Virus record (IMG/VR): IMGVR_UViG_3300009154_000049
Source: an uncultured virus (IMG/VR IMGVR_UViG_3300009154_000049)
Taxonomy: Duplodnaviria > Heunggongvirae > Uroviricota > Caudoviricetes
Direction: 5' to 3' (one strand)
Length of the DNA stretch: 64,000 nucleotides
Shown: in pieces, positions 1 through 52,047 of the stretch
Layout of the letters: every line of letters starts with the position of its first letter
Numbering within the stretch: the first letter of the stretch is position 1
The notes under the pieces: generated by a model
What the model was told of the DNA's origin: nothing
The model's input: only the letters and a program-made list of their open reading frames with translations
The model's database searches: none
Program-made: the position numbers and the translations under genes

Positions 1-2
1 AT

Positions 3-85
3 GCTGAGTTGGCACAGTGGCGACTGCACCGCTTTTGTAAGGCGGAACACAAACATCGGGGGTTCGAGTCCCTCACTCAGCACCA
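3..85 (+). tRNA. tRNA-Thr(TGT) with enlarged 12-nt variable loop
   Basis: Acceptor GCTGAGT/ACTCAGC, anticodon arm CCGCT-TTTGTAA-GGCGG, GGTTCGAGTCC T arm, encoded ACCA. Confidence 0.85.
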
Positions 86-107
86 TAACACGGACAGGAA
101 ACACAGG

Positions 108-266
108 GTGAAGCGTCTGTGGTATATCTGGGCCAAGAGCCTGGGTGAGAAAGCCAGCGATGATCCCAGCATCGCTGACAGAGTAGCAGTGGTTAGATCA
201 GTGATAGTGCTGAGCTATCTGCTCACCAACCTGTTCATCATCGCCGGTGTGATAAGGCACTGGTAG
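108..266 (+). CDS. small membrane protein of a common phage family (WAKSLGEKA...RHW)
   Basis: GTG start after a purine-rich RBS; 52 aa with one hydrophobic segment. The ORF-track extension to position 9 overlaps the tRNA. Confidence 0.7.
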   Translation: MKRLWYIWAKSLGEKASDDPSIADRVAVVRSVIVLSYLLTNLFIIAGVIRHW

Positions 267-277
267 ACAATTCATAT

Positions 278-355
278 CGGGGCGTGGCTCAGCCTGGTTA
301 GAGCGCTGGTCTGGGGGACCAGAGGTCGTGAGTTCGAATCTCGCCGCCCCGACCA
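278..355 (+). tRNA. tRNA-Pro(GGG)
   Basis: CGGGGCG/CGCCCCG acceptor, CTGGT-CTGGGGG-ACCAG anticodon arm, TTCGAAT loop, ACCA. Confidence 0.95.
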
Positions 356-369
356 TTCACAGTGCTGTT

Positions 370-978
370 TCAGCGCGTGAAAAACAGATCGTTTTGGAAT
401 ATCTCGCAGCAGCGCCAACCCTGAGATTCGATCATTGATATGCAGTCTCGGGGTGATTCTACGCTCAGCAGCCTGGTTGGCATCTTTGCCCACGGCATGC
501 GGCGCGCTATCTCAAAGCTGAGTCCTTCCGCGTCGATGGTCACGAAGTCAATCTCCATGCCTATCTGCTTGATCAGATTCTTTGAAGTGAGGCAGGGAAC
601 ATCCGTTTGATATAGATTGGATAGCTCAGACTCATACCACCAATCGCTGCGTATGCTGCTCTTGCGGCTTGGACCATTAGGGCCATGTGGATCCTGCTTG
701 TCATAAATGGTAACGGTGTCTCCCTGATATTCTGGGCGCACTATAGCAGCCTGAATGATGGTGCAGCGTTCCATGACACCGCGAGATTCGTAAAGCTGGC
801 GCATGCTACGGCAGTTGGCTTCGTGTGGTTCTACCAGCACAGCATGCCATCCTGATTCTATGAGATTAAGCGTTTGACTCTGTGCCAGTCCGTCATGGGC
901 TCCGATTTCCAAGCATCGGCCCACTTGCGACCCGAAGAAATCACGTATCCAGGTATCTTGCCCATGTGAACAATACAT
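370..978 (-). CDS. FkbM-family methyltransferase
   Basis: YSHGQD start, LEIGAHDG motif I, VLVEP, IDFVTIDAEG. Confidence 0.85.
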   Translation of the reverse strand: MYCSHGQDTWIRDFFGSQVGRCLEIGAHDGLAQSQTLNLIESGWHAVLVEPHEANCRSMRQLYESRGVMERCTIIQAAIVRPEYQGDTVTIYDKQDPHGPNGPSRKSSIRSDWWYESELSNLYQTDVPCLTSKNLIKQIGMEIDFVTIDAEGLSFEIARRMPWAKMPTRLLSVESPRDCISMIESQGWRCCEIFQNDLFFTR

Positions 979-991
979 GGATTACTTATCA

Positions 992-1067
992 GCCCAAGTA
1001 TCCCAATGGCAGAGGAGGCTGTTTCAAAAACAGTCAGTTGGGGGTTCGAGTCCCTCCTTGGGCACCA
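992..1067 (+). tRNA. tRNA-Leu(CAA), short variable arm
   Basis: GCCCAAG/CTTGGGC acceptor, GCTGT-TTCAAAA-ACAGT arm, 5-nt variable loop, ACCA. Confidence 0.85.
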
Positions 1068-1071
1068 TCAT

Positions 1072-1147
1072 GCTCTCTTGGTGAAACTGGATATCACAGG
1101 AGTCTACGAAACTCCAGTTCCAAGTTCGAAGCTTGGGGAGAGCGCCA
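1072..1147 (+). tRNA. tRNA-Arg(ACG)
   Basis: GCTCTCT/GGAGAGC acceptor, GGAGT-CTACGAA-ACTCC arm, CCAAG-TTCGAAG-CTTGG T arm, GCCA. Confidence 0.92.
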
Positions 1148-1167
1148 AAAGTTTTTCACTATACCCG

Positions 1168-1195
1168 TTGACAACGATCACAGCGGTGTTATAGT
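1168..1195 (+). promoter_or_regulatory. sigma70-type promoter driving the large ncRNA
   Basis: TTGACA-N16-TATAGT with TG extension; the -10 box ends 9 nt before the ncRNA 5' closing strand. Confidence 0.8.
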
Positions 1196-1204
1196 AATTC
1201 TATA

Positions 1205-2097
1205 GACGCTGAGCACGGCAACGTTCACAGCGCAGAAATTGGGGGCTTGGCCTCAATAGGATAAGCGCAGTGATGCGCCCAAAGCTGGAATGCTCACATA
1301 CCAGCGCTGTGCGAACAGTCCATCTAAGCAAGCCTGCTCACCCTGGAAACAGGGCCTTAGCTCATCAAACGGCTGAGGTAACAATGAAGCTGGTGTTGTG
1401 GAGAGAACGGATGTTCAAGCGCCCGCAAGGGTAACGCAGGCGTCCGGAGAGTAACAGGTGGTGCTGACCTCACAACAGACCAACCAGCCAACTGGTATGA
1501 GAAAGGGTAGTGTTCGTGTCCGAGCTTCGCAGGCAAGGGCTAGAGCGCAGTATGCGTGGTGATTGGTGCGCCCGAGGAGGAGCGCGTCAGTTGTCGCAAA
1601 ATACCACGGAGTAGCCGGCAGGTGAAAGGTATGCGGCGTGTTGTATTGAGTGGGGCAAAACTCCATTCAGCAGCTGAAGTAGCACGTCGTTGTGGGTTTG
1701 CACATAGCTCATTTGGTAGAGCAATCCTAGCATAAAGGATCGGTAGTGGGTTCAATTCCCTCTGTTGAAAAACGCAAAGTCTACTTCGGTTGGATGTGTA
1801 AGATGTCAAACGCTTGGGGCGCAAGCTAACCAAGTCCAGAGAAAGCTCGCAAGGCCTATCTGGTTCATACATGGGGGTTCGTAACGACTTAGCGGTCGTG
1901 AATAGCTCGCAAGGCTAACGGGATGGATTGTGTGGAGTAGCATCCAGCGACAGGTCTACTGCCTGACCTTATAAACGGCGACATTGTCTATGGACCCAGT
2001 GACTGGTCACAGCACAGGGTGGATGTCGGGAGAAAGCGGCTCGCAAGGCCAGTGATAATGCCCGAGGCATAGATGTAAGACGTGTAATCTCAGCGTC
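1205..2097 (+). ncRNA. large structured ncRNA, probable GOLLD-class RNA (~893 nt)
   Basis: No credible ORF; 5' GACGCTGAG (1205-1213) is the exact reverse complement of 3' CTCAGCGTC (2089-2097); many GNRA-capped hairpins; internal tRNA-like domain; own promoter and downstream hairpin; located in a phage tRNA cluster. GOLLD assignment rests on size, context and architecture, not a covariance-model search. Confidence 0.8.
1698..1770 (+). pseudogene. tRNA-like domain (CAT anticodon) embedded in the large ncRNA
   Basis: TA-GCTC-ATTTGGTA-GAGC D arm, ATCCT-AGCATAA-AGGAT anticodon arm, GGGTTCAATTCCC T arm; mismatched acceptor stem, no CCA. Confidence 0.8.
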
Positions 2098-2102
2098 CGC
2101 AA

Positions 2103-2133
2103 AGTGGCTCTAATGGGGCCATTTCTGCTTTTT
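2103..2133 (+). terminator. hairpin plus T-rich tail after the ncRNA (terminator or processing site)
   Basis: AGTGGCTC-TAATG-GGGCCATT then TCTGCTTTTT. Confidence 0.55.
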
Positions 2134-2217
2134 GGAGGTATGCGAGCAAGGTGCTCAAGCGGTCTTGAAAACCGCGCCACCGCAAGGTTGATGGTTCGAT
2201 TCCTTGTACCTCCGCCA
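2134..2217 (+). tRNA. tRNA-Ser(TGA)
   Basis: GGAGGTA/TACCTCC acceptor, GCGGT-CTTGAAA-ACCGC arm, long variable arm with GCAA loop, GCCA; compact D arm and weak T stem. Confidence 0.8.
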
Positions 2218-2220
2218 AGT

Positions 2221-2295
2221 TGGGGAATAGTTAAACTGGTATAACTGCGGATTCTGACTCCGCCATTCGAGGTTCGAACCCTTGTTCCCCAGCCA
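2221..2295 (+). tRNA. tRNA-Gln(CTG)
   Basis: TGGGGAA/TTCCCCA acceptor, GCGGA-TTCTGAC-TCCGC arm, GCCA. Confidence 0.93.
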
Positions 2296-2314
2296 ACCTT
2301 TTCAAACACATCAT

Positions 2315-2390
2315 TGGGGAATGGCGCAATTGGTGGCGCAGGGGACTTTGAATCCCAAGGCTGTAGGTTCGAGTCCTACTTCCCCAGCCA
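2315..2390 (+). tRNA. tRNA-Gln(TTG)
   Basis: TGGGGAA/TTCCCCA acceptor, CTTTGAA loop, GTAGG-TTCGAGT-CCTAC T arm, GCCA. Confidence 0.93.
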
Positions 2391-2532
2391 CATGCTCTAA
2401 TCCGTGTGAGCCATAACCAAAACGCATGTGTCCGCGCAGCACGCAACACAGTCATGCGCTGCACACAGTTGTGTTGTGCACCGCAAGGTGATATATATGA
2501 GAGAAGGCACTTGCCAAACACACAGAGGACAC

Positions 2533-2742
2533 ATGGACATGATAATCACGATGATCAACAAGCAGATAGTCAAGATCAACGACTGGTGCAGGGTCAACCG
2601 CACGGTCAACGAGCTCAGCAGGCTCAGCAACAGGGAGCTAGCTGATCTGGGCATGAGCCGTTGCGACATCTATCGCATCGCCAAGCAGAGCGTGAACAAG
2701 CAACGCGATCATGAGGATCGCAGAGCAACCTATCACATCTGA
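2533..2742 (+). CDS. DUF1127 (YjiS-like) small protein
   Basis: RTVNELSRLSNRELADLGMSRCDI matches the DUF1127 pattern L..LsDr.L.DiGl.R.di; GAGGA RBS. Confidence 0.85.
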   Translation: MDMIITMINKQIVKINDWCRVNRTVNELSRLSNRELADLGMSRCDIYRIAKQSVNKQRDHEDRRATYHI

Positions 2743-2769
2743 TCCCAGTCAAAAATTAATCAAACCAAA

Positions 2770-2794
2770 CAGCAGGGGCCAAAAGCCCCTGCTG
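2770..2794. terminator. strong GC hairpin after the DUF1127 gene
   Basis: CAGCAGGGGC-CAAAA-GCCCCTGCTG, 10-bp perfect stem. Confidence 0.65.
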
Positions 2795-2805
2795 TCGCAT
2801 CTCAC

Positions 2806-2881
2806 AGACCCATAGCTCAGCAGGTAGAGCTCCTGACTTTTAATCAGGGTGTCGCCGGTTCGAACCCGGCTGGGTCTACCA
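2806..2881 (+). tRNA. tRNA-Lys(TTT)
   Basis: AGACCCA/TGGGTCT acceptor, CCTGA-CTTTTAA-TCAGG arm, ACCA. Confidence 0.95.
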
Positions 2882-2886
2882 ACTGA

Positions 2887-2962
2887 GCCCACGTAGCCCA
2901 AAGGCAGAGGCAGGAGACTTAAAATCTCCTCAGTGAGAGTTCGAGTCTCTCCGTGGGTACCA
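2887..2962 (+). tRNA. tRNA-Leu(TAA), short variable arm
   Basis: GCCCACG/CGTGGGT acceptor, GGAGA-CTTAAAA-TCTCC arm, 5-nt variable loop, ACCA. Confidence 0.88.
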
Positions 2963-2963
2963 C

Positions 2964-2991
2964 TAGACACAGCTGCGATTGGCGCTATAAT
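2964..2991 (+). promoter_or_regulatory. sigma70-type promoter
   Basis: TAGACA-N16-TATAAT. Confidence 0.7.
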
Positions 2992-3000
2992 CGTGGCTAA

Positions 3001-3077
3001 GTCCACGTGGCTCAACAGGATAGAGCGGCGGTTTCCTAAACCGCAGGTTGGGTGTTCGAGTCACCCCGTGGACGCCA
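3001..3077 (+). tRNA. tRNA-Arg(CCT)
   Basis: GTCCACG/CGTGGAC acceptor, GCGGT-TTCCTAA-ACCGC arm, GCCA. Confidence 0.95.
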
Positions 3078-3094
3078 AATTAGAGGACCGCAAA

Positions 3095-3709
3095 ATGATA
3101 AGCACCGTAGCCAGCACCGCACTCGTGCTAGTCAGGGAAGGTTTCGAGAGCGTGCTGCTGACCAGCATGATTGCCGCTGCCTTGCCAGAGCACCATAGGC
3201 GCAGCATCAACATCAACTTCCTGGTCACGTGGTGCATCACGCTGATCGCGGGATGGTTTGCCGTGGACATCATATGGCCCTATATCGAACATATAGAGCA
3301 TGTGATGATGATCGTGACTGCGCTGGTGCTGCTCTACATATTCTTCAACAGCAGGGCCATCTTCCAGCATGCCAAGGCCCATGCCGACCAAGTCAGAGAC
3401 GGCAGCATCTGGACAGTGCAGCTCACGGTGTTTTTGATCTGCCTGCGCGAAGCCTTGGAATCCACGGTGTTCCTGGGCAGCGAGATACATTCTGACCCTG
3501 CTGGCGTAGTGCAGGGGTTGCTGCTGGGACTGCCTGCCATGCTGCTGCTGATTTGGTCCGTGTCCCTGGCCAACAAGACGACCAAGAGCCTGATCAATCG
3601 CATCATGTTTCGCTACGTAGGCTACGCGCTGCTGGCCATGGCCATCTATTACCTGTTCCATGGCATGACCGAGCTGGCCGAGCAGGCATTTGGCATCAAC
3701 CTGCTCTAG
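3095..3709 (+). CDS. FTR1/EfeU-family iron permease
   Basis: Two RExxE motifs (REGFE, REALE), multiple hydrophobic helices, GAGGA RBS before ATG 3095. Confidence 0.85.
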   Translation: MISTVASTALVLVREGFESVLLTSMIAAALPEHHRRSININFLVTWCITLIAGWFAVDIIWPYIEHIEHVMMIVTALVLLYIFFNSRAIFQHAKAHADQVRDGSIWTVQLTVFLICLREALESTVFLGSEIHSDPAGVVQGLLLGLPAMLLLIWSVSLANKTTKSLINRIMFRYVGYALLAMAIYYLFHGMTELAEQAFGINLL

Positions 3710-3734
3710 ACAAGCGCACCTTGCGCGGTATAAT
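3707..3734 (+). promoter_or_regulatory. sigma70-type promoter
   Basis: TAGACA-N16-TATAAT. Confidence 0.7.
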
Positions 3735-3769
3735 GTATCAGACTGACAACCACCATAAGGAGCTAGCAC

Positions 3770-3985
3770 ATGGCTAAATCGCCAAAGAAAACTGTAAAGA
3801 CCCTGAGCGACAAGCTGACCAAGATCAACGACAGCTTCACAGTAAACCTCTATGATAACGGCTTCATGGTAGAAGCAGGTGGTCGCGATGACAACGACGA
3901 GTGGATCACTGCCAAGATCATGGTCTCCACTATCGAAGATCTGGTCACTGTGATCCGCGAAGCAGCGGACATGGAACGCAGCTGA
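3770..3985 (+). CDS. hypothetical phage protein (71 aa)
   Basis: AAGGAG RBS, promoter upstream, coupled TGATG junction to the next gene. Confidence 0.8.
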   Translation: MAKSPKKTVKTLSDKLTKINDSFTVNLYDNGFMVEAGGRDDNDEWITAKIMVSTIEDLVTVIREAADMERS

Positions 3986-4404
3986 TGTTGGAATGCCTGA
4001 TCCTGGGTGACAGCATAGCAGCAGGTATCTCAGCCGCGAGGCCTGAGTGCGTGAGCATGGTCAAACCTGGGATCAACAGCAGGGATTGGTGGCAGCACAA
4101 TGGCCACCGTCCATTGATAGACATGATGGAATACCACACCGTGGTTATCAGCCTGGGCACCAATGATCTCAGCTTGGTACCCAGCTTTAGCTATCTTGAG
4201 CTGGTGCGCAACAAGATCAGAGCAGACAGGGTGCTGTGGATAGTGCCACAGCCAAGGTTTAACGAAGCACGCACCGCAGTGCTGTCCGTGGCTGATCAGT
4301 TCAGGGACGGCATCATAGAGATACCATCCAAGGATCTTGCCAAGGATCAGATACATCCCACTGCTAGCGGGTATAAATCATTGGCAGCAGAGACCAAGCG
4401 ATAA
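3985..4404 (+). CDS. SGNH/GDSL hydrolase
   Basis: Blocks ILGDSIA, SLGTND and DQIHP. Confidence 0.85.
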   Translation: MLECLILGDSIAAGISAARPECVSMVKPGINSRDWWQHNGHRPLIDMMEYHTVVISLGTNDLSLVPSFSYLELVRNKIRADRVLWIVPQPRFNEARTAVLSVADQFRDGIIEIPSKDLAKDQIHPTASGYKSLAAETKR

Positions 4405-4478
4405 GCTCTCATAGTATAAAAGTATTACACCGTATTGGTAATGCGGAAACGCAGGGGCGGTACCTGCTGGGAGCACCA
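4405..4478 (+). tRNA. tRNA-Thr(GGT) with non-canonical D and T loops
   Basis: GCTCTCA/TGGGAGC acceptor, CCGTA-TTGGTAA-TGCGG arm, T stem GCAGG/CCTGC with loop GGCGGTA, D loop lacks GG, ACCA. Confidence 0.8.
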
Positions 4479-4553
4479 TAAACAGCTGAGAATTACTACA
4501 CTAATATGACGCTGACCATGGTATAAGTACGGCAAAGCATCAGGGAGAAGGCT

Positions 4554-5609
4554 TTGGCCAAGGTACTGTTCATACTCAAGCGCAGAGAAGACTACAACGC
4601 AGTCACACACAATCATGTTGGACTCAGCACCGGACTGTTCAATTCAGCCAGCTTCGTGGACCAAATGCTCGCAGACGGCGGCATTGACAGCAAGCTGGTG
4701 GTAGTCACAGACAACAATGACATCGACAGAGAAGTCACAGCCTATCAACCTTCCCACGTGATCATAGAAGCGCTCTGGGTAGTGCCCAGCAAGTTTGCGG
4801 TGCTGCAGCGCCTACACCCTGCTGTGACATGGATCATACGACTGCACAGCGACATGCCCTTCATGGCCATGGAAGGCATGGCCATGGACTGGCTCTGCGA
4901 CTACAGCAGCTTTGCCAACGTGGTAATAGCCTGCAACGCACCCCGCATGCTGCGAGAAGTCTCAGACATCATAGCCACGCGCAACCGTTGGACTGTTCAA
5001 CAGACCAGAGACAGGGTGATATACCTGCCCAACTACTATCCCGAAGGCCACAAGACCAAACAGTTTGACCATCGCAAGCCCAGCCTGGACATCAGCTGCT
5101 TTGGCGCAGTGCGTCCATTGAAAAATCATCTGCTGCAGGCCATAGCCGCGCTGGAGTTTGCCAACCGCATGGGCAAGAAGCTGCGGTTCCACATCAACAG
5201 TGGCAGGATCGAGGGCAAGGGCGAGCCCATCATGCGTAACCTGCAGAACCTCTTTGAACAGCTGCATCCCACAGGCCACAGGCTGATCGCACATGATTGG
5301 ACACCCAGAGACAGGTTCCTAGAGCTGTGTGCCAGCATGGATCTAGGCATGCAGGTCAGCTTCAGTGAAACATTCAACATCGTGGGAGCTGATCTGATCA
5401 GCCAAGGCGTGCCTCTGGTGGGCAGTGCTGAGATACCCTGGGGTGTAGGGCTGTTTGCTGCTGATCCAACCAGCAGTGCTGACATGGTGCGCAAGCTGCA
5501 CCTCAGCTGGGAGCTGCCTTGGCTCAACACTCGCTGGCAGCAGCACAGGCTCAGCAGCTATGGTCGTGAGACTCAGCGCCTGTGGCAGAGATATTTCACT
5601 GCTAAATAA
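4554..5609 (+). CDS. GT-B (GT4-like) glycosyltransferase
   Basis: ISCFGAVRPLKN and SFSETFNIVGADLISQGVPLV resemble the GT-B donor-binding region; TTG start. Confidence 0.7.
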   Translation: MAKVLFILKRREDYNAVTHNHVGLSTGLFNSASFVDQMLADGGIDSKLVVVTDNNDIDREVTAYQPSHVIIEALWVVPSKFAVLQRLHPAVTWIIRLHSDMPFMAMEGMAMDWLCDYSSFANVVIACNAPRMLREVSDIIATRNRWTVQQTRDRVIYLPNYYPEGHKTKQFDHRKPSLDISCFGAVRPLKNHLLQAIAALEFANRMGKKLRFHINSGRIEGKGEPIMRNLQNLFEQLHPTGHRLIAHDWTPRDRFLELCASMDLGMQVSFSETFNIVGADLISQGVPLVGSAEIPWGVGLFAADPTSSADMVRKLHLSWELPWLNTRWQQHRLSSYGRETQRLWQRYFTAK

Positions 5610-5613
5610 TCAC

Positions 5614-5823
5614 ATGAGCAAGCACAAACATTCAGTCAAGAGCCATATATGGCGCGGCGGTATCCTCACCGTGTTCGAAGAGTTCTTTGACAGCTTGGAA
5701 CATGCTCTGCACTACAGCAGGCAGACTGGCGCTCAGACCACCAAGATCTATCACGTGGACAGCGGTGAGCTGGTTCACAGCGCATCCAGCACAGGGCCCA
5801 GCGCCTCAGAGACCTACGCCTGA
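5614..5823 (+). CDS. hypothetical protein (69 aa)
   Basis: ATG 5 nt after a TAAATA box; genome-typical codons. Confidence 0.65.
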   Translation: MSKHKHSVKSHIWRGGILTVFEEFFDSLEHALHYSRQTGAQTTKIYHVDSGELVHSASSTGPSASETYA

Positions 5824-5870
5824 AAGCACACATTGCGTCACTGACTGCATAAATACAGCAGAGGTGAACT

Positions 5871-6296
5871 ATGAACGTGAACGAAAAAGGTGTAACAGGT
5901 TTAATAGAAGTTATCAGGGATCTAAACCGTAAAGGCTACGAATGCTTTACGCCTTTTAATGATTTCAGCGCCGTTGATTTGATAGTAGTGAATAAAGATT
6001 ATCAAGTTAGACGCTTACAGGTCAAATATAGAGCATTTGATAAAGTAGATCAGATACATTTAGAACTTTTTAGTATAGTAAACGGTAAAAAAATTCCAAT
6101 AAATCGCACAGCAATAGATGCTTATGCTATCTATATTCCAGATGTAGATTGTGTTTGCTATTATCCAATATGCGATATAGCTGCGGATAAAAAAAGCTTT
6201 ATTGTGCGAAAATCACAGGGCAAGAAGACAATAAACGTTGACAAAAAGCCAGCTCCAGTATATAGTGAGTTATTAGACGAGATGAGATTGTGGTAA
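5871..6296 (+). CDS. free-standing PD-(D/E)XK endonuclease (I-Ssp6803I/PDDEXK_5-like homing endonuclease)
   Basis: KG..G...(E)..P....S.VDLIV....RLQVKY pattern; visibly AT-rich relative to flanks; stop codon abuts tRNA-Ser. Confidence 0.75.
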   Translation: MNVNEKGVTGLIEVIRDLNRKGYECFTPFNDFSAVDLIVVNKDYQVRRLQVKYRAFDKVDQIHLELFSIVNGKKIPINRTAIDAYAIYIPDVDCVCYYPICDIAADKKSFIVRKSQGKKTINVDKKPAPVYSELLDEMRLW

Positions 6297-6384
6297 GGAG
6301 TCCGGGCAGGACGGTAATGCAGCGGCTTGCTAAGCCGTACAACCCGTGAGGGTTGACAGGGTTCGATTCCCTGGGGCTCCGCCA
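6297..6384 (+). tRNA. tRNA-Ser(GCT)
   Basis: GGAGTCC/GGGCTCC acceptor, GCGGC-TTGCTAA-GCCGT arm, long variable arm AACCCGTGAGGGTT, GCCA. Confidence 0.92.
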
Positions 6385-6397
6385 AAACTCGTTAGTT

Positions 6398-6423
6398 GGG
6401 TTCGAATCCCTCCCTCACCGCCA
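6398..6423 (+). pseudogene. 3' fragment of a second tRNA (Ser-like)
   Basis: GGGTTCGAATCCCTCCCTCACCGCCA = T loop + acceptor 3' strand + CCA with no 5' half. Confidence 0.75.
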
Positions 6424-6466
6424 AAATTCCCAGAGATTTCAACATGAGATTACCGTAAAATAGCTG

Positions 6467-6494
6467 TTGACAGCTTGCTCTTACGTGCTATAAC
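6467..6494 (+). promoter_or_regulatory. sigma70-type promoter followed by a structured leader
   Basis: TTGACA-N16-TATAAC; leader hairpins GGGCA-ATCG-TGCCC and TAACCC-ACT-GGGTTA. Confidence 0.75.
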
Positions 6495-6571
6495 TGTAGT
6501 CATGGCGAGGGCAATCGTGCCCAGGGCCATACTGGATAACCCACTGGGTTAGAGCAAACGGAGAGACTGAA

Positions 6572-7678
6572 ATGGCCCGCAACGCAGGTCGCGCAACACC
6601 GCACAATGGGATTGCTACTTTCATGAAAAAGTTCAGCAAACCTTTCTCATTAGACGCCAGCTACATTGACACTGAGGACATGAGCCTCAACTATGCCGAT
6701 GGTCTGATCCCCATGGCTGACATCGCAGCAGCAGTAGATGCCGCAATCGGTACTTGGCAAGGCAGGGTCAAGACAGCCTTCCAGATGATGAATCTCACAC
6801 CAAGATTTGAGTTGGTCAGCAAGGACGTCATCTACACGCATCCAGCTTTCAACCGCGATACCAGCCCAAACCACTGCCTCAAGATTGAAAAGTCCTGGTA
6901 CGATCAGTTTGCCACCACTGGACTGGGGCTGAAGATGCCTGACAAGTATGGCAACATCGTGCTCAATTGCGACAGCACTCACACTGGTGCCAATCGCATT
7001 CGCCAGGGCATTACAGAACTGCCATTTTGGTTGGCTGACATCCCAGACATGGGAACCCGCGAGGCCACGCTCAAGGAAGGATTGTTCATCGCTGGTCATA
7101 TGTTCCTCAACATCAACGTTATCAACAAGCGCGGCTGTGACGTGTTTGATCAGCACAAGATCAAGGTAGCATGCGGCATCTACCCCGCGCATCTCATCGA
7201 CGCCCGTGTGCGCAAGACCGCAGCTTTTGTCAAACGCAGCGGCATGAAGATCACCAATGCCATCCACAATCTCAACGAAGTCTATGAGACCTTTGCCTTG
7301 GACAAAGGCAGCAACGATCCAGGCAGGTTGTTGGAGATCGTGCTGAAATGGCATGTGCGTAACTTCCTTCACCAAAGCATCGACGGTTGTCTCTGCACAA
7401 GCTTTGCTATGGTGCTGCAGGACAATGAGCTGGATGATATCACCTGGACCGAAGCTGAGATGGATCAGGTGGCCACACTGTTGCGCAGCCGCTATAAGAA
7501 AGCTCGAGATGCGCAGCTGGCCATCAAGGAAGCCTGCCTCCAGGGCAAGAACCCTGGAGAAACTGAGCTGGCTCCGAACTGGGTTGTCAGCAACGGCATC
7601 AAGCGTTTGGTGTCCACGAACCTGCAGCTGTCTGTGGGCAAGGACAAGATCAGAAACTGGGACTCGGCATTGTCATGA
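6572..7678 (+). CDS. hypothetical protein, possible ParB/Srx-like N-terminal domain
   Basis: FNRD...IVLNCDSTHT resembles the YQR...iDGQHR/T ParB-like motif (weak); GGAGAG RBS. Confidence 0.5.
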   Translation: MARNAGRATPHNGIATFMKKFSKPFSLDASYIDTEDMSLNYADGLIPMADIAAAVDAAIGTWQGRVKTAFQMMNLTPRFELVSKDVIYTHPAFNRDTSPNHCLKIEKSWYDQFATTGLGLKMPDKYGNIVLNCDSTHTGANRIRQGITELPFWLADIPDMGTREATLKEGLFIAGHMFLNINVINKRGCDVFDQHKIKVACGIYPAHLIDARVRKTAAFVKRSGMKITNAIHNLNEVYETFALDKGSNDPGRLLEIVLKWHVRNFLHQSIDGCLCTSFAMVLQDNELDDITWTEAEMDQVATLLRSRYKKARDAQLAIKEACLQGKNPGETELAPNWVVSNGIKRLVSTNLQLSVGKDKIRNWDSALS

Positions 7679-8061
7679 ACTGGCTTTACACGCTCACACC
7701 ACCACTGGGTACGGCCAACAAGTTTGGCATCAGCGGCAGCATCAGAGGACGGCTTGGAAAGTACCAGCTGCCGTATGGTCCAACCTGGGAGGCAGCGTTC
7801 AGTTGGTTGGCTGGTCATGAAGATCCCAAGGTCATCAGCTGGATGGAAGACAGCATCAAAGGACATTTCCGTAACCATCGCTGGGGCATTGGCCCTGGCA
7901 TGACGGAATGGCTGGAAGACGTCACTGCTGAGCAGATCAGAGACTACGTGATGCTGGTCAATGCGGATCTTGATCTTGGTATCAAAGAGTATGGATTTGC
8001 TCAGTGGAATGCCCTGCGATTGGCACACGAGTTCCCTGATGATCATGGGCAAGACGATTAA
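7675..8061 (+). CDS. GIY-YIG/T5orf172-like protein
   Basis: WLY...KFGIS....RL..YQ...E pattern; ATGA overlap with the upstream gene. Confidence 0.55.
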   Translation: MNWLYTLTPPLGTANKFGISGSIRGRLGKYQLPYGPTWEAAFSWLAGHEDPKVISWMEDSIKGHFRNHRWGIGPGMTEWLEDVTAEQIRDYVMLVNADLDLGIKEYGFAQWNALRLAHEFPDDHGQDD

Positions 8062-8108
8062 CGATTTTGTCATCTAACCCTAGATAAATATCCAGTGGTC
8101 ACCATGCT

Positions 8109-8306
8109 ATGCCAGAAACAGGTCCAAGACCTTATGAGATACTGCAGTACGACTCGCGCCACGGCAAGAGGTACTACACGGTGACCCGCGGAGGGCGATT
8201 GATCCTCCGCACGCGCGATCTGCGCCAAGTTGAATACTATCAACAGGCTAACGCACAGGCTCGTGCTGGTTCTCTTGCCAGCACAGGCAAAACCGATGGG
8301 GGATAG
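8109..8306 (+). CDS. hypothetical protein (65 aa)
   Basis: Follows a TAAATA box; fills the gap before the RNase H-like gene. Confidence 0.55.
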   Translation: MPETGPRPYEILQYDSRHGKRYYTVTRGGRLILRTRDLRQVEYYQQANAQARAGSLASTGKTDGG

Positions 8307-8307
8307 C

Positions 8308-8793
8308 ATGCTACCAAGAGAGATCGACATACAGGAAATAGCCACTTTCGTTGAGAGCTGCGGACCAAACACACGCCTCTACATTGGCTGTGACAGCGAG
8401 CGATTCATACACAAGGGCCGTTGGCATGCGGACTATACCCTGGCCGTGGTGGTTCACAAGAATGGCAACAACGGCTGCAAGATCTTTGGCTGCGCAGATC
8501 GTGAGATCGACTATGACCAGCGCAAGGACCGTCCACAGCTGCGGCTGATGAACGAGGTCTATCGCGTGAGCAACCTCTACCTGCAGCTGATCGAAGCCAT
8601 GCCCAATCGCGAGATCGAAGTGCATTTGGACATCAATCCCGACGAGAGGCACGGCAGCAGCTGCGTGATACAGCAGGCCATAGGGTACATACGAGGCACC
8701 TGCAACGTCATACCCTTCGTCAAGCCTGATGCGTTTGCTGCCAGCGTGGCTGCTGATAGGCTCAAGGACGTGAGATCAAGGTTGGTGGCCTGA
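8308..8793 (+). CDS. RNase H-like YkuK/DUF458 family protein
   Basis: YIGCDS, RLMNEV, EVHLDIN, KP.AFAAS.AAD motifs. Confidence 0.85.
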   Translation: MLPREIDIQEIATFVESCGPNTRLYIGCDSERFIHKGRWHADYTLAVVVHKNGNNGCKIFGCADREIDYDQRKDRPQLRLMNEVYRVSNLYLQLIEAMPNREIEVHLDINPDERHGSSCVIQQAIGYIRGTCNVIPFVKPDAFAASVAADRLKDVRSRLVA

Positions 8794-10902
8794 GGCCACC
8801 AACATCTCTGCGAACATGCCACTGCGGCGAGGCTTTGAGCCCCAATAGCCCTGTCCATGCCACTGGACGTGGAAGCTGAGATCCAAGTTCTTGATCTCTT
8901 CATGCTGGGCCATGATGCGTGCCCAGTCATCAGGATTGAAACCTTCAGCAGGGTCGTTGAGATCAGGCCTAGCCAGTCGCCGAGCTCTGATGGCGCTGTT
9001 GCTGTTGTTGCGGCCAAAATCTATGGCACACCAAGGTTGGTCTGGTGTCTTGTGAGGTATGCCTGCAGTGTAAGGCGGTTGCTGATAGCCTATGTCAAAG
9101 TCTGCTGTCCACGAACCCTGGGCATTGATGTCGAACCTGTACACGGCCGTGATGGGGCAGGCCACGTTGTCTCCAAACTCTGCCAGATCCCAGGCAGGAT
9201 CAAACCTTATCTCTGCAGTGTAGGCACCGCGAGTGCGCCACAACATGCGCAGCAGTGGCCAGATCTCGTTGGCCACGCTGTTGGCAATCACGCCCTGATC
9301 TGTGTGTATGATGTCATAGTTAAACTGCTCATACTCAATGATGTTCAGCCTCTGAGGATCCGCCAGCACTATGTCATAGCATTGGCGCAGATTGTGCCTG
9401 GTGTTCTTGGCGATGTCCAAGTCAGTGACCAAGTGGTCCAGGAACATGCTGAAGGTCTTGACTCGCAGGAACTTGTTGAGCTTGCTCATGCGCAGGTCCT
9501 TGGTGATCCATGATCCCAGATAGTACTCTGTCATGAGATTGTGCTTGGTGAGGTTCTGTCCCACGATGCTGTCCACGCCCACGTTGTAGCCCTGGCCCGG
9601 GCTGATGTCCGTGATACGGTGGTTCCTGTTGCGCCATATCATGGTCATGGTGTCGGCAAAGTCTTGGTAGCCTTCCTCGGGATAGGCCACTATCCAGTTG
9701 GTATAGGCTTCCAAACCAACCGCAGCACCATCCCTGAAGTTCTGTTCCATCTCTGCCACGGTGGTGCCCTTGTCCATGGCATCCAGCACTCGCTGGCTGC
9801 CGCTCTCGCAACCATAGTTCAGCGCCACGCAGCCGCTGGCTGCCAAGTCTTTGTAGTAGTCTAGGTCCATGCGGCCATCACAGCGAGCATAGCCTGTCCA
9901 GTGTATGGTCATGCCGCTGGCTATGATGCCCCTGCAGAAGGCTCGCAGCTCACGGATGTTGCCGTTGACCAAGCTGTCGATAAACCAAAAGGCATCTATG
10001 CCATGGTTGTCATAGAGATGCGCCACTTCCTTGAGTATGCTGCTGCTCTGCCTCTGACGGTACAGATAGAAATGCGTCTCTTCGCAGAAGGTGCACTTGG
10101 CAGTGCAGCCTCGGCTGAGCTCAGTGTTGACGCCGTTGGGTATGCTGTAGAGGCTGAGGTCAAAGAAGCTGTAGTCAGGTATGGGCAGCTTGTCCAAGTC
10201 AATGCGTTGGTCTCTGGGCTGGCGCATGATCATGGGCGTGTCATGCACCACACCCTGTTCCAGTTCATCCAACAGGTTCAGCAATGGTGTCTCGCCCTCG
10301 CCGTTGACCACGTAGTCATACTCGGGTTCTGGCTGGTAGTAGCTGTAGTGAGTGCTGCTGCCTCCCACCACGATCTTGATCTCGGGCCAGCGCCGCTTGA
10401 TCTCAGAGCTCAGCCAGCGAGTAGGTGCCAGGTTGCAGTAGTAGATGGTGAAGCCTATGACATCTGGTTTCAGTTGACCAATATTCTCCAGCGTCTCGGC
10501 TAACAGAGGCAACATGTGCTGATGTAGGTCGTTGAAGTACTGTGGGGCTATCCAATGCCAATCTCGCATGCCATCCCAGGGGTCATAGTCTATGCCGGGC
10601 CAACCCTGGAGATAGCGGTTGCGGGCCTGAGCGTTGATGTCCCAGATGTGAGTGTCGTAGCCTGCGGCCTTGGTCACTGATCCCAGACGTGCCAGGTTAT
10701 AGGGCGGGAAGCGATGTGCCCATTCAGGCAACAGCATCAGCAACAGCTTGGTTTTCCTAGTGGCAGCCTTGACTTCAACGGGTGTGAGGTTCTTCTGCGC
10801 ATGGGGTTTGGCCCAGGGTTCGATGGCACGCAGCATGGCCAGATGCCGATCTCCCGTGGGCTGCACTGTGGATTTCTTGTCTATCTTGCCAAACTGTTTC
10901 AT
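8776..10902 (-). CDS. cobalamin-dependent radical SAM enzyme
   Basis: N-terminal B12-binding-type domain (PPYNLARL...PDVIGFT...IVVGG), SRGCTAKCTFC CxxxCxxC motif, G.ESGS. Confidence 0.9.
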   Translation of the reverse strand: MKQFGKIDKKSTVQPTGDRHLAMLRAIEPWAKPHAQKNLTPVEVKAATRKTKLLLMLLPEWAHRFPPYNLARLGSVTKAAGYDTHIWDINAQARNRYLQGWPGIDYDPWDGMRDWHWIAPQYFNDLHQHMLPLLAETLENIGQLKPDVIGFTIYYCNLAPTRWLSSEIKRRWPEIKIVVGGSSTHYSYYQPEPEYDYVVNGEGETPLLNLLDELEQGVVHDTPMIMRQPRDQRIDLDKLPIPDYSFFDLSLYSIPNGVNTELSRGCTAKCTFCEETHFYLYRQRQSSSILKEVAHLYDNHGIDAFWFIDSLVNGNIRELRAFCRGIIASGMTIHWTGYARCDGRMDLDYYKDLAASGCVALNYGCESGSQRVLDAMDKGTTVAEMEQNFRDGAAVGLEAYTNWIVAYPEEGYQDFADTMTMIWRNRNHRITDISPGQGYNVGVDSIVGQNLTKHNLMTEYYLGSWITKDLRMSKLNKFLRVKTFSMFLDHLVTDLDIAKNTRHNLRQCYDIVLADPQRLNIIEYEQFNYDIIHTDQGVIANSVANEIWPLLRMLWRTRGAYTAEIRFDPAWDLAEFGDNVACPITAVYRFDINAQGSWTADFDIGYQQPPYTAGIPHKTPDQPWCAIDFGRNNSNSAIRARRLARPDLNDPAEGFNPDDWARIMAQHEEIKNLDLSFHVQWHGQGYWGSKPRRSGMFAEMLVASGHQP

Positions 10903-11030: not shown

Positions 11031-11678
11031 ATGCAGGAAAAATACGATGAACTGGTAGCAATGATCAAGCCGCTGACCACGGACATACCAGGACTCAAGT
11101 GGTTTCCCAGCCTAGAACCAGACGTCAGCAATGACCAGGACCAGCCATTGAACAACTATTGGATCAGCCTGGAGGAAGTCAGCGACGGCAACCTCGACGT
11201 GGTACGTCAAACAGTCTCAGAGCTGGGCACCAATCTAGCAGCAGCTCTGGAGATTGGCGTGAACCGCAACGGTGATCGCAGCATGAGCAGGATCATCATG
11301 GATCATCGCCCGCCGCTCAGCTACTACATGGGCATTGACATCGAAGACAAGAGCTATCTCAACGACGAGAGCGCCAACACTTGGACCATGCAGATCAGCA
11401 GCGCAGAACGTGCCAAGATATCAGATCGCCTCAAGCAGCTGGGAATCGGCAACTTGGATCTGATCATGATCGACGGCTGGCACTCAGTGAACATGTGTGT
11501 CAACGATTGGCAGTTCACAGAACGACTGAGCGATCACGGCATAGTGCTGCTGCATGACACCAACACTCACCCAGGCTGCGTGGCACTGTTTGAAGCAGTG
11601 GATGAACGCCTGTGGATCAAGCAGAGGTTCTGCCTCGAGCACGACTTTGGAATCGCAACATTCAGGAAGAGGATCTAA
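11031..11678 (+). CDS. class I SAM-dependent methyltransferase (Methyltransf_24-like)
   Basis: LEIGV, GID, DLIMIDGWH, G.VLLHDT motifs. Confidence 0.8.
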   Translation: MQEKYDELVAMIKPLTTDIPGLKWFPSLEPDVSNDQDQPLNNYWISLEEVSDGNLDVVRQTVSELGTNLAAALEIGVNRNGDRSMSRIIMDHRPPLSYYMGIDIEDKSYLNDESANTWTMQISSAERAKISDRLKQLGIGNLDLIMIDGWHSVNMCVNDWQFTERLSDHGIVLLHDTNTHPGCVALFEAVDERLWIKQRFCLEHDFGIATFRKRI

Positions 11679-12457
11679 TGGCTATCACAGAAGCGCTGCT
11701 GCGCAGCCCAATCGGTTACAACATGAACGTGTTGGCAGAAAGGCTGAACCATGTCAGGGACGTGGTTGACCTAGACAGCTGGCGCACAATATTTGACATA
11801 GGCGCCATGGATGGCTGGGAAGGCACCAACTTTGCCAAGGTTTTTACCGAAGCACGCATATTCGCATTTGAAGCCAGCAAGGACAACTGCGAGCGCTGCA
11901 CCAAGACCTACATGGCACAGCCCTATGCCACTCGCAGCAGGATAGGACTCAGCAACATCGCGCTCACAGACGTCACGGGACCCATGAAGTTCTGGGCAGT
12001 GGATGAAGCTGTGGCCATGGCTGCCAAGGACAAGGTAAACTGGGGCATGGGCAGCATGCTCAAGCTCACAGATCCCGACATGTGGCCCTGGGAGCACAAC
12101 GCACAGAAGGAAGTGGAAGTCCAAGGCTATCGCTTGGATGACTACTGTGTGGCTGCCAAGATCGATCGCGTGGATGCCATCTGGATGGACGTGCAGGGTG
12201 CTGAGCTGAAAGTGCTGCAGGGCGCTGGCGCTCGCTTGGCAGACGTGCAGGTCATATTCACCGAAGCAGGCGTGGAAGCCTACTACGAGGGCCACATGCT
12301 CAAGCCAGAGCTGGATCAGTTCTTGGCCAGCCAGGGATTCACAGAGCTGGAATCTGCGCGCCAACAGGCGCATCGCTACGAAGTCAATGCTATATACGTT
12401 AACGATCGATTCGTGCGCAAGGTTGACAGCGCGCCAGTCGAGACCGTAGCATCTTAA
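11678..12457 (+). CDS. FkbM-family methyltransferase
   Basis: FDIGA.DG, FAFEA, RLDDY, WMDVQGAE..VL.G; TAATG coupling. Confidence 0.9.
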   Translation: MAITEALLRSPIGYNMNVLAERLNHVRDVVDLDSWRTIFDIGAMDGWEGTNFAKVFTEARIFAFEASKDNCERCTKTYMAQPYATRSRIGLSNIALTDVTGPMKFWAVDEAVAMAAKDKVNWGMGSMLKLTDPDMWPWEHNAQKEVEVQGYRLDDYCVAAKIDRVDAIWMDVQGAELKVLQGAGARLADVQVIFTEAGVEAYYEGHMLKPELDQFLASQGFTELESARQQAHRYEVNAIYVNDRFVRKVDSAPVETVAS

Positions 12458-14471: not shown

Positions 14472-15485
14472 ATGCGCAAGCTAGCAACTGTACGTAGGAT
14501 CGATGCTATCCAACCAATCCCTGATGCTTATGCCATCGAATGCGCAGTGGTAGGCGGTTGGAAAGTTGTAGTTAAGCGAAGTGAGTTCGCAGTAGGCGAT
14601 CTTGCTGTGTACCTTGAGATCGATTCTTGGGTACCGCATGAACTTGCTCCGTTCTTGTCGAAAGGTTCTGAACCTCGTGAATACAACGGTGTGAAAGGTG
14701 AACGTCTTCGCACTGTAAAATTGCGTGGGCAAATTAGCCAAGGATTGCTGTTGCCTTTGACTTGTATTCAGATTGATACTACGTGGGATGCTATTGAAGG
14801 TTGGGATGTTACTGGCATCCTTGGTATCCAAAAGTGGGAACCTCCAATCCCTGCACAGCTGGGTGGACAGGTCAAAGGCAACTTCCCCGGCAGCATCCCC
14901 AAGACAGATCAGGAGCGCATCCAGAATCTCAGTGGCAAACTGGATGATTGGAAATCACGTGGTTACCACTGGGAGGTCACTGAGAAGCTGGATGGTACCA
15001 GCATGACAGTGTTCTTGGAGCGCGATGGACAATTCGGAGTGTGTGGACGCAACTGGGATCTTGCCGAGACCGATGACAACAGCCTGTGGCGTGCTGCCCG
15101 AGCGAATGATCTAGAAAGCAAGCTGCGCGATCTGGGCAAGGCCATCGCCATCCAGGGTGAGCTGATCGGCGAAGGCATCCAAGGCAATGCCTACCGTATC
15201 AAGGGGCAGCAGTTCTGGGTCTACGATGTCTACGATATCAGTGACACTCGCTATTGGTCGGCCATGGAGCGCCAACGGCTCATAGGCTATCTCGGTCTCA
15301 ACCACGTGCCTCTGATCGATGCAAGCGAGCTGGATGCTGATGTCCCCACTCTGCTGCAGTGGGCTGAGGGCAAGAGCCAGCTGTGCGGCACCACTGAGCG
15401 CGAGGGCTTGGTCTACAAGTGCATGGAAGATCCGGAGATCAGCTTCAAGGCCATCAGCAACAAGTTCCTGCTAAAGAATGGTTGA
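14472..15485 (+). CDS. RNA ligase (ATP), DRB0094/Rnl5-type
   Basis: N-terminal OB domain (MRKLATV...EIDS...KLRGQISQGL), TEKLDGTS motif I, QGEL.G, REGLVYK, FKAISN. Confidence 0.93.
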   Translation: MRKLATVRRIDAIQPIPDAYAIECAVVGGWKVVVKRSEFAVGDLAVYLEIDSWVPHELAPFLSKGSEPREYNGVKGERLRTVKLRGQISQGLLLPLTCIQIDTTWDAIEGWDVTGILGIQKWEPPIPAQLGGQVKGNFPGSIPKTDQERIQNLSGKLDDWKSRGYHWEVTEKLDGTSMTVFLERDGQFGVCGRNWDLAETDDNSLWRAARANDLESKLRDLGKAIAIQGELIGEGIQGNAYRIKGQQFWVYDVYDISDTRYWSAMERQRLIGYLGLNHVPLIDASELDADVPTLLQWAEGKSQLCGTTEREGLVYKCMEDPEISFKAISNKFLLKNG

Positions 15486-50201: not shown

Positions 50202-50242
50202 CGATCACCACGGTTCATGCTGGATATTTAGCGACGGCAAAC

Positions 50243-50650
50243 TCAGTAGTTGTAGTGTTCTTCAACTATGATGATGCCTGCAGTGCCAGCCGCACCCGCG
50301 TGTGTTCCGCCCGCGCCTGCTGTGCCCCCAGCGCCCACAGCATAGGCATAGGTTGCTGCAGGGGACGATATCAGCTTTTCCAAATATCCGCCTCCACCGC
50401 CACCTTCGCCAAAGCTGCCAGACACCCATGCACCAGGCGCTGCACCTGCGCCATAGCCCTGACCCGAACTGCCGGCTGATGTGTTGGTACCATTACCTCC
50501 CAGCCCCAGCATAGACGATCCACCACTGACACCGGCTTGATTGGCGTTTGACGCACCGTTAGTGATATTGCCAAAGGCAGTTTGTCCACTTATGTTGATG
50601 TCTCCGCCAGTTGCGGTGCCGCCGCCGCTGCCTGATATCTGTATGGTCAT
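50243..50650 (-). CDS. partial glycine-rich fibre-tip domain (135 aa)
   Basis: GG.ATGGDINI.G...G.IIVEE.Y resembles part of the Gly-rich domain; ATGA overlap. Confidence 0.6.
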   Translation of the reverse strand: MTIQISGSGGGTATGGDINISGQTAFGNITNGASNANQAGVSGGSSMLGLGGNGTNTSAGSSGQGYGAGAAPGAWVSGSFGEGGGGGGYLEKLISSPAATYAYAVGAGGTAGAGGTHAGAAGTAGIIIVEEHYNY

Positions 50651-50949
50651 GGTGTGATATCCTTGCTGGCCAGCGCAGCTATCTGTGACTGTATCGCAGA
50701 CAACTGTGCCTGCAGATCAGCTAGGCTTGGCTGCGGTTGTGCTGTTGGTGCAGGCTGTGGGTTGGGATCTGTGAACGTGTTGTCGCTGTTGTGTGTCCAA
50801 CCGATGCTCACGGGATGCTCTGCATCTAACACCACGACCGTGTGATCTAGAGGCCACGTGTCGCCATCTTGCCACACTATGATGTTCTCTACTATGCCAA
50901 GGCTGTTGACCAATGCTGCTTTCTGACCAGTGATTGAAATCGTCATCAC
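50647..50949 (-). CDS. fibre assembly chaperone-like protein
   Basis: AA.V...G.VENIIVW...IGW......F..P then coiled-coil tail. Confidence 0.7.
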   Translation of the reverse strand: MMTISITGQKAALVNSLGIVENIIVWQDGDTWPLDHTVVVLDAEHPVSIGWTHNSDNTFTDPNPQPAPTAQPQPSLADLQAQLSAIQSQIAALASKDITP

Positions 50950-52046: not shown

Positions 52047-52047
52047 G

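Follow-up and report, generated by a model that had tools for sequence, protein, structure and literature searches.

A GOLLD RNA gene with a tRNA-shaped insert in the tRNA cluster of an uncultured freshwater tailed phage

The window analysed here is a stretch of 64,000 nucleotides from an uncultured virus of the Caudoviricetes (IMG/VR record IMGVR_UViG_3300009154_000049), in whose first 6.4 kb ARAGORN places 12 tRNA genes, one of them within the match to a large structured RNA of the GOLLD family. The placement of a non-coding RNA inside a tRNA cluster, proposed in an earlier reading made from the letters alone (hereafter the sequence-only reading), is thus borne out. A PD-(D/E)XK nuclease is encoded within the cluster, and the window further encodes tail-fibre and virion proteins, an RNA ligase (14472-15485), an RNaseH-like protein, a clamp-loader ATPase, a radical-SAM/B12 protein and methyltransferases of the FkbM type. 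For the 1099-aa virion protein the nearest relatives are in T4-like Synechococcus phages (~40% identity), and for the clamp loader in the Pseudomonas jumbo phage PA5oct (52.6% identity), in whose genome no GOLLD was found, while a 5.6-kb block of tail-fibre-like genes (47712-53340) gave no match in a nucleotide search of GenBank phages. The host had been put down as a probable alphaproteobacterium, and cultured relatives of the RNA do infect Caulobacter and Mesorhizobium, but with these two proteins closest to the Synechococcus-phage T4-likes and PA5oct the attribution is no more than a possibility. The features of the locus are collected in Table 1.

Table 1. Features at and around the GOLLD gene (positions in the window).
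Feature	Position	Strand	Basis or detail
Putative sigma-70-type promoter	1168..1195	+	TTGACA 1168-1173, N16, TG-TATAGT 1190-1195
Non-conserved 5' leader	1205..1237	+	Unalignable among homologues
GOLLD 5' domain, ~395 nt	1238..1632	+	Profile homology, covariation
GOLLD conserved 3' domain (P13/14 to P27)	1633..2097	+	Rfam RF02032
tRNA-shaped module, called tRNA-Met, anticodon CAT 1731-1733	1697..1771	+	ARAGORN; Rfam tRNA 38.3 bits
P27 hairpin, loop L27 GUAAUCUCA	2079..2097	+	GACGU 2079-2083 pairs GCGUC 2093-2097
Terminator-like hairpin and T-rich tail	2102..2133	+	Directly before tRNA-Ser (2134-2217)

GOLLD is a protein-free RNA cage, larger than a ribosome. The gene at 1205-2097 is a member of this known family: the Rfam covariance model RF02032, which describes the conserved 3' domain alone, matches 1633-2096 on the plus strand at 191.2 bits against a cut-off of 150 (E 2.6e-52), and the match spans model positions 1-416 of 416 without truncation. 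Because of this score the RNA is assigned to GOLLD and not to a new class, which decides in favour of its first term the earlier wording of a "GOLLD-class or related new class" RNA. The cmscan alignment of the 3' domain contains few non-standard pairs, its loop L14 reads CAAAA, and the long-range 10-bp pairing is kept save at one position. At gathering scores Rfam found no ROOL anywhere in the window. A permissive rescan of 1100-2250, with E up to 1, found none either; it matched only GOLLD and tRNA types, and added a tRNA match at 1698-1770 which, at 38.3 bits, passes the Rfam tRNA cut-off of 29. A sub-threshold match of tRNA-Sec type falls on the neighbouring tRNA-Ser. The minimum-free-energy fold of the 893 nt reaches -331.6 kcal/mol (z -3.24), with none of 20 shuffles as good.

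The gene appears to carry its own signals. The TTGACA-N16-TATAGT promoter of the sequence-only reading is found as described, with 11 of 12 consensus positions and a TG before the -10 element; a consensus scan of 1-7000 found 12 promoter-like sites against 6.3 +/- 2.4 in shuffles. By eye, the alignment gives a comparable layout in one homologue (L150), where a -35, a -10 and 5 nt precede TATAGACGCTGA. That the element in the window works as a promoter is suggested by its sequence. The downstream hairpin with a T-rich tail is likewise present: at 2102-2124, 10 pairs close a loop of 3, followed by the tail CTGCTTTTTG, and the hairpin folds at -16.1 kcal/mol, a value equalled by 4 of 200 shuffles. 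Together, a sigma-70-type promoter and a terminator-like hairpin would delimit the GOLLD gene.

Relatives of the RNA were sought at several depths. Against GenBank phages, blastn matches are limited to window positions 1609-1813 (68-73% identity, 17-20% of the query) and come from 18 records of phiCbK-group Caulobacter phages and from Mesorhizobium phage Cp1R7A-A1. The three phage relatives that were fetched carry GOLLD at 193.5, 169.4 and 165.3 bits (Rfam), exactly one per whole record, where the GenBank annotation is tRNA only. When the GOLLD and Caulobacter literature was searched and judged by title, no title on a phiCbK GOLLD was found. With members in phiCbK-like Caulobacter phages and in a Mesorhizobium phage, the clade offers a culturable phage-host pair for genetics. 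When viral, metagenome and genome contigs were scanned for motifs and the results filtered by nhmmer, at least 77 loci with a 3'-domain hit were obtained: a loose scan of viral contigs returned at least 119 stretches, with GOLLD in 16 of those listed, a tighter motif gave GOLLD in 34 of 64 loci, and the metagenome and genome scans in 25 among the 236 loci listed. One metagenome locus (L278) contains an exact 60-mer of the window, and closer relatives probably exist beyond the loci listed. The genome-contig matches listed include one Thalassospira contig and two contigs of Acidobacteriota MAGs, so that the clade spans more than one host group. Forty-three loci were complete with 520 nt upstream; after 13 sequences had been dropped at 97% identity or more, 31 were kept, the window included. 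Of the 30 members of this set scanned with Rfam (all but L159), 28 pass the GOLLD cut-off and two (L144, L015) fail. The single copy in the window adds little by itself; the value lies in the comparison set around it.

The RNA is present in lake metatranscriptomes. Seventeen studies of fresh or lake water have together yielded 20 public runs that contain the stretch; among these 20 runs, six are RNA libraries and five may be the source sample. RNA contigs of four runs, chosen because they contain this stretch, were compared with window positions 1-9000. In the first (X6) a 944-nt contig covers 1194-2137 at a depth of 13.6, with flanks at 0-6.2 (thin cover); in the second (X8) an 861-nt contig covers 1248-2099 at 39.5, with flanks at 0 except for about 1 near 7000; and in the other two (X16 and X18) a 628-nt contig covers 1448-2075 at 93.8 and 32.1 and belongs to a strain with six differences. 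The longest contig ends at 2137, and all of them cross both 1697 and 1771, the limits of the tRNA-shaped insert. Assembled contigs indicate presence and continuity, not ends, strand or level, and the parts of 1-9000 without contig cover count as a flank contrast only, not as silence; read in this way, the GOLLD RNA is present in lake RNA libraries, uncut, and well above its flanks. GOLLD is reported to rise during lysis in the available text of PMC12286853.

The insert lies in J13/15, a single-stranded linker that is the tRNA site in some GOLLDs (PMC12286853, available text) and that faces the cage lumen in cryo-EM models, according to the available parts of PMC12286853 and PMC12990946. The copy in the window retains the GG of the D-loop and the T-loop, while its acceptor stem has mismatches at 3-70 (G-G) and 4-69 (C-U) and so falls short of seven pairs. 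In tRNA anticodon loops a U at position 33 is near-universal; here the loop reads AGCAUAA, with G1730 at that position. Because the acceptor is defective, position 33 is a G and the module remains continuous with the rest of the RNA in environmental transcripts, it most likely serves as a tRNA mimic tethered to GOLLD, probably a pseudo-tRNA, rather than as a tRNA able to decode.

Inserts of this kind, tRNA-shaped but with a degraded acceptor end and an anticodon that varies, are the norm in the clade. Among loci with a GOLLD hit, ARAGORN at a relaxed threshold makes a tRNA-like call in 42 of 48 unique linkers; the other six, for example L007 (51 nt) and L149 (45 nt), gave no such call at that threshold. 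At the default threshold, 10 of the 38 embedded modules have an acceptor stem of at least 7 pairs; among distinct tRNAs flanking them in the same loci the figure is 113 of 131. The shape of the anticodon loop is mostly preserved (embedded against flanking): a loop of 7 nt in 33/38 against 131/131, U33 in 34/38 against 126/131, and R37 in 37/38 against 128/131. At least 15 amino-acid types are represented among the anticodons of the linker modules. Those of Leu and Ser type are found on bodies of 70-75 nt without a long variable arm, three anticodons read stop codons (two UUA, one UCA), and six modules have anticodon loops of 8 nt. Fourteen pairs of modules are at least 80% identical outside the loop; in the eight pairs with loops of equal length, 67 of 539 body positions have changed, compared with 31 of 56 in the loops, the compared pairs sharing ancestry and not being independent. 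The copies of Magneto and phiCbK give the sharpest case, with identical tRNA bodies and anticodon loops that differ at 5 of 7 positions, in GOLLDs that differ at 9 of 923 columns and within 5.2-kb loci 92.8% identical. The variability is uneven: the loops of L185 and L202 are the same, a single inserted base separates those of L306 and L378, and the loop window of the L231/L378 pair ranks 162 of 912. An anticodon loop free of constraint would vary too. Full acceptor stems with an encoded CCA are found in L185/L202, L231, L306 and L378.

It could be argued that the insert is instead the precursor of a genuine tRNA (Met or Ile2, anticodon CAU), which GOLLD, as a scaffold for storage or timing, would shield from RNase P/Z until the cage opens. 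The module does pass the Rfam tRNA cut-off with its D-loop GG and T-loop in place, release of a working tRNA is possible in those relatives with full acceptor stems and an encoded CCA, and a review proposes, in the part available, an "inhibited storage" of the embedded mycobacterial tRNA-Phe (PMC12990946). Against this stand the two acceptor mismatches and G33 of the window's own insert, the rarity of seven paired acceptor positions in embedded modules as compared with neighbouring tRNAs, the Leu and Ser anticodons on 72-74-nt bodies lacking a long variable arm together with the 8-nt loops, the RNA contigs that run uncut across the insert, and the mycobacterial pseudo-tRNA, which the available text of PMC6582537 gives as undetected as a separate RNA. 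A stored precursor is accordingly held to be unlikely.

The two ends of the gene raise a second question. The claim of a 9+9-nt complementarity is exact, GACGCTGAG (1205-1213) being the reverse complement of CTCAGCGTC (2089-2097). When the longest Watson-Crick complement was sought between the 60 nt before P1, the first hairpin of the 5' domain, and the 14 nt from CUCA onward, it measured 9 in the window, and when those 60 nt were shuffled, 3 of 1000 versions gave 9 or more. In L150, which is 68% identical overall to the window, it measures 7 (25 of 1000 shuffles). A complement of at least 7 nt is missing from 29 of the 31 homologues, where it is 6 or fewer, and present only in the window and L150, so that the view of the RNA as closed by a terminal helix does not hold as a family feature. 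The 3' arm, moreover, consists of the last four bases of loop L27 and the 3' strand of P27, and the end helix excludes P27, a conserved element of the known fold. Across the 31 homologues 94.2% of P27 cells pair and 60 carry a change in each strand, which none of 500 shuffles equalled; all 5 pairs show such two-sided changes, and L27 is described as drawing together seven regions of the core of the GOLLD 3' domain (PMC12286853, available text).

The end helix is real and above chance in this phage, and at most a feature of a small subclade. Could it nevertheless be a functional closing helix, for example a switch withholding L27 and P27 until the leader is displaced or removed? The rarity of a perfect 9-nt complement among shuffles, the seven end pairs retained in L150 and the inclusion of the helix in the minimum-free-energy fold all speak for such a role. 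It is nonetheless doubtful. The helix is missing from nearly all homologues, its 3' arm is already taken by the covarying P27, and the leader upstream of P1 is unalignable, several homologues passing, by eye, from a tRNA through ~20 nt straight into P1. The cage construct of a solved GOLLD, env-38, starts at the hairpin that matches the window's P1 and ends right after P27 (by eye, supplement text), so that the 9-nt leader complement falls outside it (by eye), and this leaderless RNA still forms cages. Because the arms of the window and L150 are nearly identical, they offer no compensatory change with which to test the helix. RNAduplex, run on leader against 3' tail with shuffles, is uninformative here, the window itself reaching no more than 0.125 because the tail took in the GC-rich terminator. 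The helix between leader and 3' end is placed outside the GOLLD family fold.

The 5' domain begins at the P1 hairpin (1240-1255) and closes with GAGUAGCC-loop-GGUGAAAGG. In the MAFFT alignment of the 31 sequences, conservation starts at UGGGG-GCUUGG-CCUCA (1240-1255) and continues with UAGGAUAAGC, a GNRA-capped hairpin and CCAAAG. A nhmmer profile made from the 5' halves of the window and L001, the Mesorhizobium phage, finds the domain in 9 loci, and it is homologous to its counterparts in the GOLLDs of uncultured phages, of phiCbK-like Caulobacter phages and of Cp1R7A-A1. Of the 29 pairs in the RNAalifold prediction, 24 show compensatory changes. The hairpins listed by the sequence-only reading (at 1265, 1307, 1341, 1422 and 1483) are all where it put them. 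In this alignment of homologues, which was not fitted to structure, these hairpins together with P1 and a helix at 1284 pair in 75.3% of cells, compared with 55.3% in shuffles, and change on both sides in 209 cells, compared with 83 (0 of 500 shuffles as high), while versions slid by 1-3 columns pair in 35-44%. Overall, then, they covary across the homologues, the hairpin at 1483 being the weak one. Taken singly, the helices pair in 92% of cells (1265), 77% (1284), 68-87% (1307) and 69-74% (1341); the 1422 helix reaches 97%, with many gaps. The 1483 hairpin, in which 42-57% of cells pair, was rejected as a family-wide element.

The published helices P1-P12 were compared with the 5' domain by eye, against the env-38 text. 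The opening resembles env-38 in its P1 hairpin and a UAGGAUAA motif, while the last hairpin of the domain has a GCAA-type tetraloop where env-38 has the loop of kissing bridge B4; because the tetraloop replaces that loop, the contacts of the cap may differ from those of env-38. A search for env-38 itself in viral contigs by means of its published reverse primer gave 0 hits.

These results bear on the remaining alternatives. That the RNA belongs to a new class merely resembling GOLLD might be suspected from a Rfam model limited to the 3' half and from blastn matches to GenBank phages over so small a part of the query, but the full-length model match exceeds the curated cut-off, the 5' domain is common to sequences that also pass it, and the opening is shared, by eye, with env-38, which makes a separate class very improbable. 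That the stretch encodes one or more small proteins, given minus-strand ORFs of up to 110 aa, has next to nothing in its favour, because the covarying RNA fully explains the region and the translated matches listed in homologues are mostly short, many with 1-4 stops. The longest ORFs inside measure 110 aa (1540-1872, minus strand) and 83 aa, in agreement with the earlier remark that the region holds no credible gene; five ORFs of the window compared by tblastn with 30 homologues gave 141 hits, and the 25 listed among these all concern the 110-aa ORF.

The reading preferred here, to which a probability of roughly 85% is given, is that of a GOLLD RNA gene in the tRNA cluster of an uncultured freshwater tailed phage, the product of which most likely forms a cage and carries what is probably a tethered tRNA mimic. 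By analogy with env-38, a 14-mer cage (PDB 9MEE), and with the 12-mer of Streptococcus agalactiae GOLLD (9L0R), both given in the available part of PMC12990946, the RNA most likely self-assembles without protein into a hollow homo-oligomeric cage of 10-14 copies, in which the ring would be built of 3' domains and capped by 5' domains, with the linker modules expected to face the lumen. The tRNA-shaped module is most likely a tethered mimic that keeps the shape of the elbow and of the anticodon loop. Regarding its function, a mimic engaging a host factor is favoured because the insert keeps the elbow and the anticodon arm, loses the acceptor and changes its anticodon quickly. The cage might then display a large number of tRNA-shaped baits to a host factor able to read elbow and anticodon arm; an anticodon nuclease would be one candidate, some other defence or translation factor that binds tRNA another. 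The specificity of the bait would lie in its fast-changing anticodon loop. This proposal is a tentative one, rated above the delayed release of a working tRNA. More speculative still is the idea that the J13/15 module is the working end of GOLLD as such, with its loop in an arms race with tRNA-targeting defences and the cage serving as a multivalent decoy; if it were true, the Magneto/phiCbK allele pair would make the arms-race reading directly testable in Caulobacter.

The RNA of the window is like the solved GOLLDs in its 3'-domain model match, the CAAAA of L14, the long-range 10-bp pairing, P27 and the sequence of its loop, a 5' domain of ~400 nt, a variable J13/15 linker and the setting in a phage tRNA cluster. 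It is unlike env-38 in its 33-nt leader complementary to the 3' end and in the pseudo-tRNA of its linker, where env-38 has a 42-nt disordered loop, and the loop sequences of the 5' domain differ as well (by eye only). Mycobacterial GOLLDs have a tRNA-like insert at the same linker site: they lie in tRNA arrays with a tRNA-Phe in J13/15 (Morgado 2020, as cited in the available part of PMC12990946), and the pseudo-tRNA inside one of them is, in the available text of PMC6582537, undetected as an RNA of its own. They differ from the present case in host phylum, in the CAU and G33 of the window's insert and in the window's putative promoter of its own. ROOL, too, is phage-borne, occurs near tRNAs and builds a cage whose inner linker is disordered (PMC12286853, available text), but the RNA of the window is set apart from it by the lack of a ROOL model match in 1100-2250 at E up to 1. 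The GOLLDs of phiCbK-like phages and Cp1R7A-A1, with 3' domains at 165-194 bits, bear an insert at the same site, annotated in GenBank as tRNA only, whose anticodon loops differ from that of the window and are of Leu, Lys or Gly type. Cp1R7A-A1 shares the 5'-domain motifs of the clade; for the phiCbK copies the alignment is poorer. A permuted tmRNA adjoins GOLLD on the other strand in phiCbK.

A full GOLLD RNA, scoring 165–169 bits with the Rfam model, is present in phiCbK-like Caulobacter phages, where it is adjoined on the other strand by a permuted tmRNA, as laid out in the table for two such loci, L002 and L003. At this GOLLD the GenBank entry consists of a tRNA-Lys or a tRNA-Gly and nothing more. 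Among 18 records of the phiCbK group the label is Lys in 8 and Gly in the other 10, a split that agrees with two alleles of the anticodon loop set in an identical tRNA body.

The tRNA-shaped modules embedded in the GOLLDs of three loci (L231, L306 and L378) have a near-identical body in which the acceptor stem is complete and CCA is encoded, and they carry three different anticodon loops. Some modules bear anticodons that read stop codons, namely UUA in L231 and L292 and UCA in L282, and in six loci (L054, L057, L151, L158, L184 and L378) the anticodon loop is 8 nt long. A GOLLD of the window's own clade (L071, 188.3 bits with Rfam) lies on a viral contig of 607,744 bases; its linker module gives no tRNA call at ARAGORN's default threshold and is called Asp (ATC) at a relaxed one.

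The contigs of two RNA runs contain a second strain that differs from the window at six positions (1574, 1582, 1649, 1675, 2007 and 2008), none of which (0/6) falls in the anticodon loop of the module. On one reading of the hairpin, A1649G would change an A-U pair to G-U, and the remaining five would be loop or internal-loop positions.

Features of the window and of two phiCbK-like loci
Feature	Coordinates	Strand	Evidence or remark
GOLLD/permuted-tmRNA pair, L002	1698-2017, 2526-3012	(-), (+)	opposite strands; intervals in order of position
GOLLD/permuted-tmRNA pair, L003	1699-2017, 2526-3012	(-), (+)	opposite strands; intervals in order of position
FkbM-type methyltransferase	370-978	-	
tRNA-Arg (ACG)	1072-1147		ARAGORN, not Rfam
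sigma-70-like promoter	2964-2991	+	11/12 positions, consensus scan
sigma-70-like promoter	3707-3734	+	11/12 positions, consensus scan
tRNA	4405-4475		Rfam (47.1 bits), not ARAGORN
PD-(D/E)XK endonuclease ORF, 141 aa	5871-6296		Pfam PF11645, E 2.4e-10; among tRNA genes
sigma-70-like promoter	6238-6266	+	11/12 positions, consensus scan
B12-binding radical-SAM protein, 708 aa	8776-10902	-	
FkbM-type methyltransferase	11612-12457	+	
RNA ligase	14472-15485		PHROG 968, E 1.3e-88; Pfam RNA_ligase and PHA02142 OB domain

ARAGORN and Rfam disagree at two tRNA sites of the window. Its tRNA region holds all three of the additional promoters, which suggests that this region is read by host polymerase as several transcription units. 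The PD-(D/E)XK ORF is possibly a homing-type nuclease. Phage RNA ligases can in general repair tRNAs cut by anticodon nucleases; the window's ligase gene lies 12 kb away from GOLLD.
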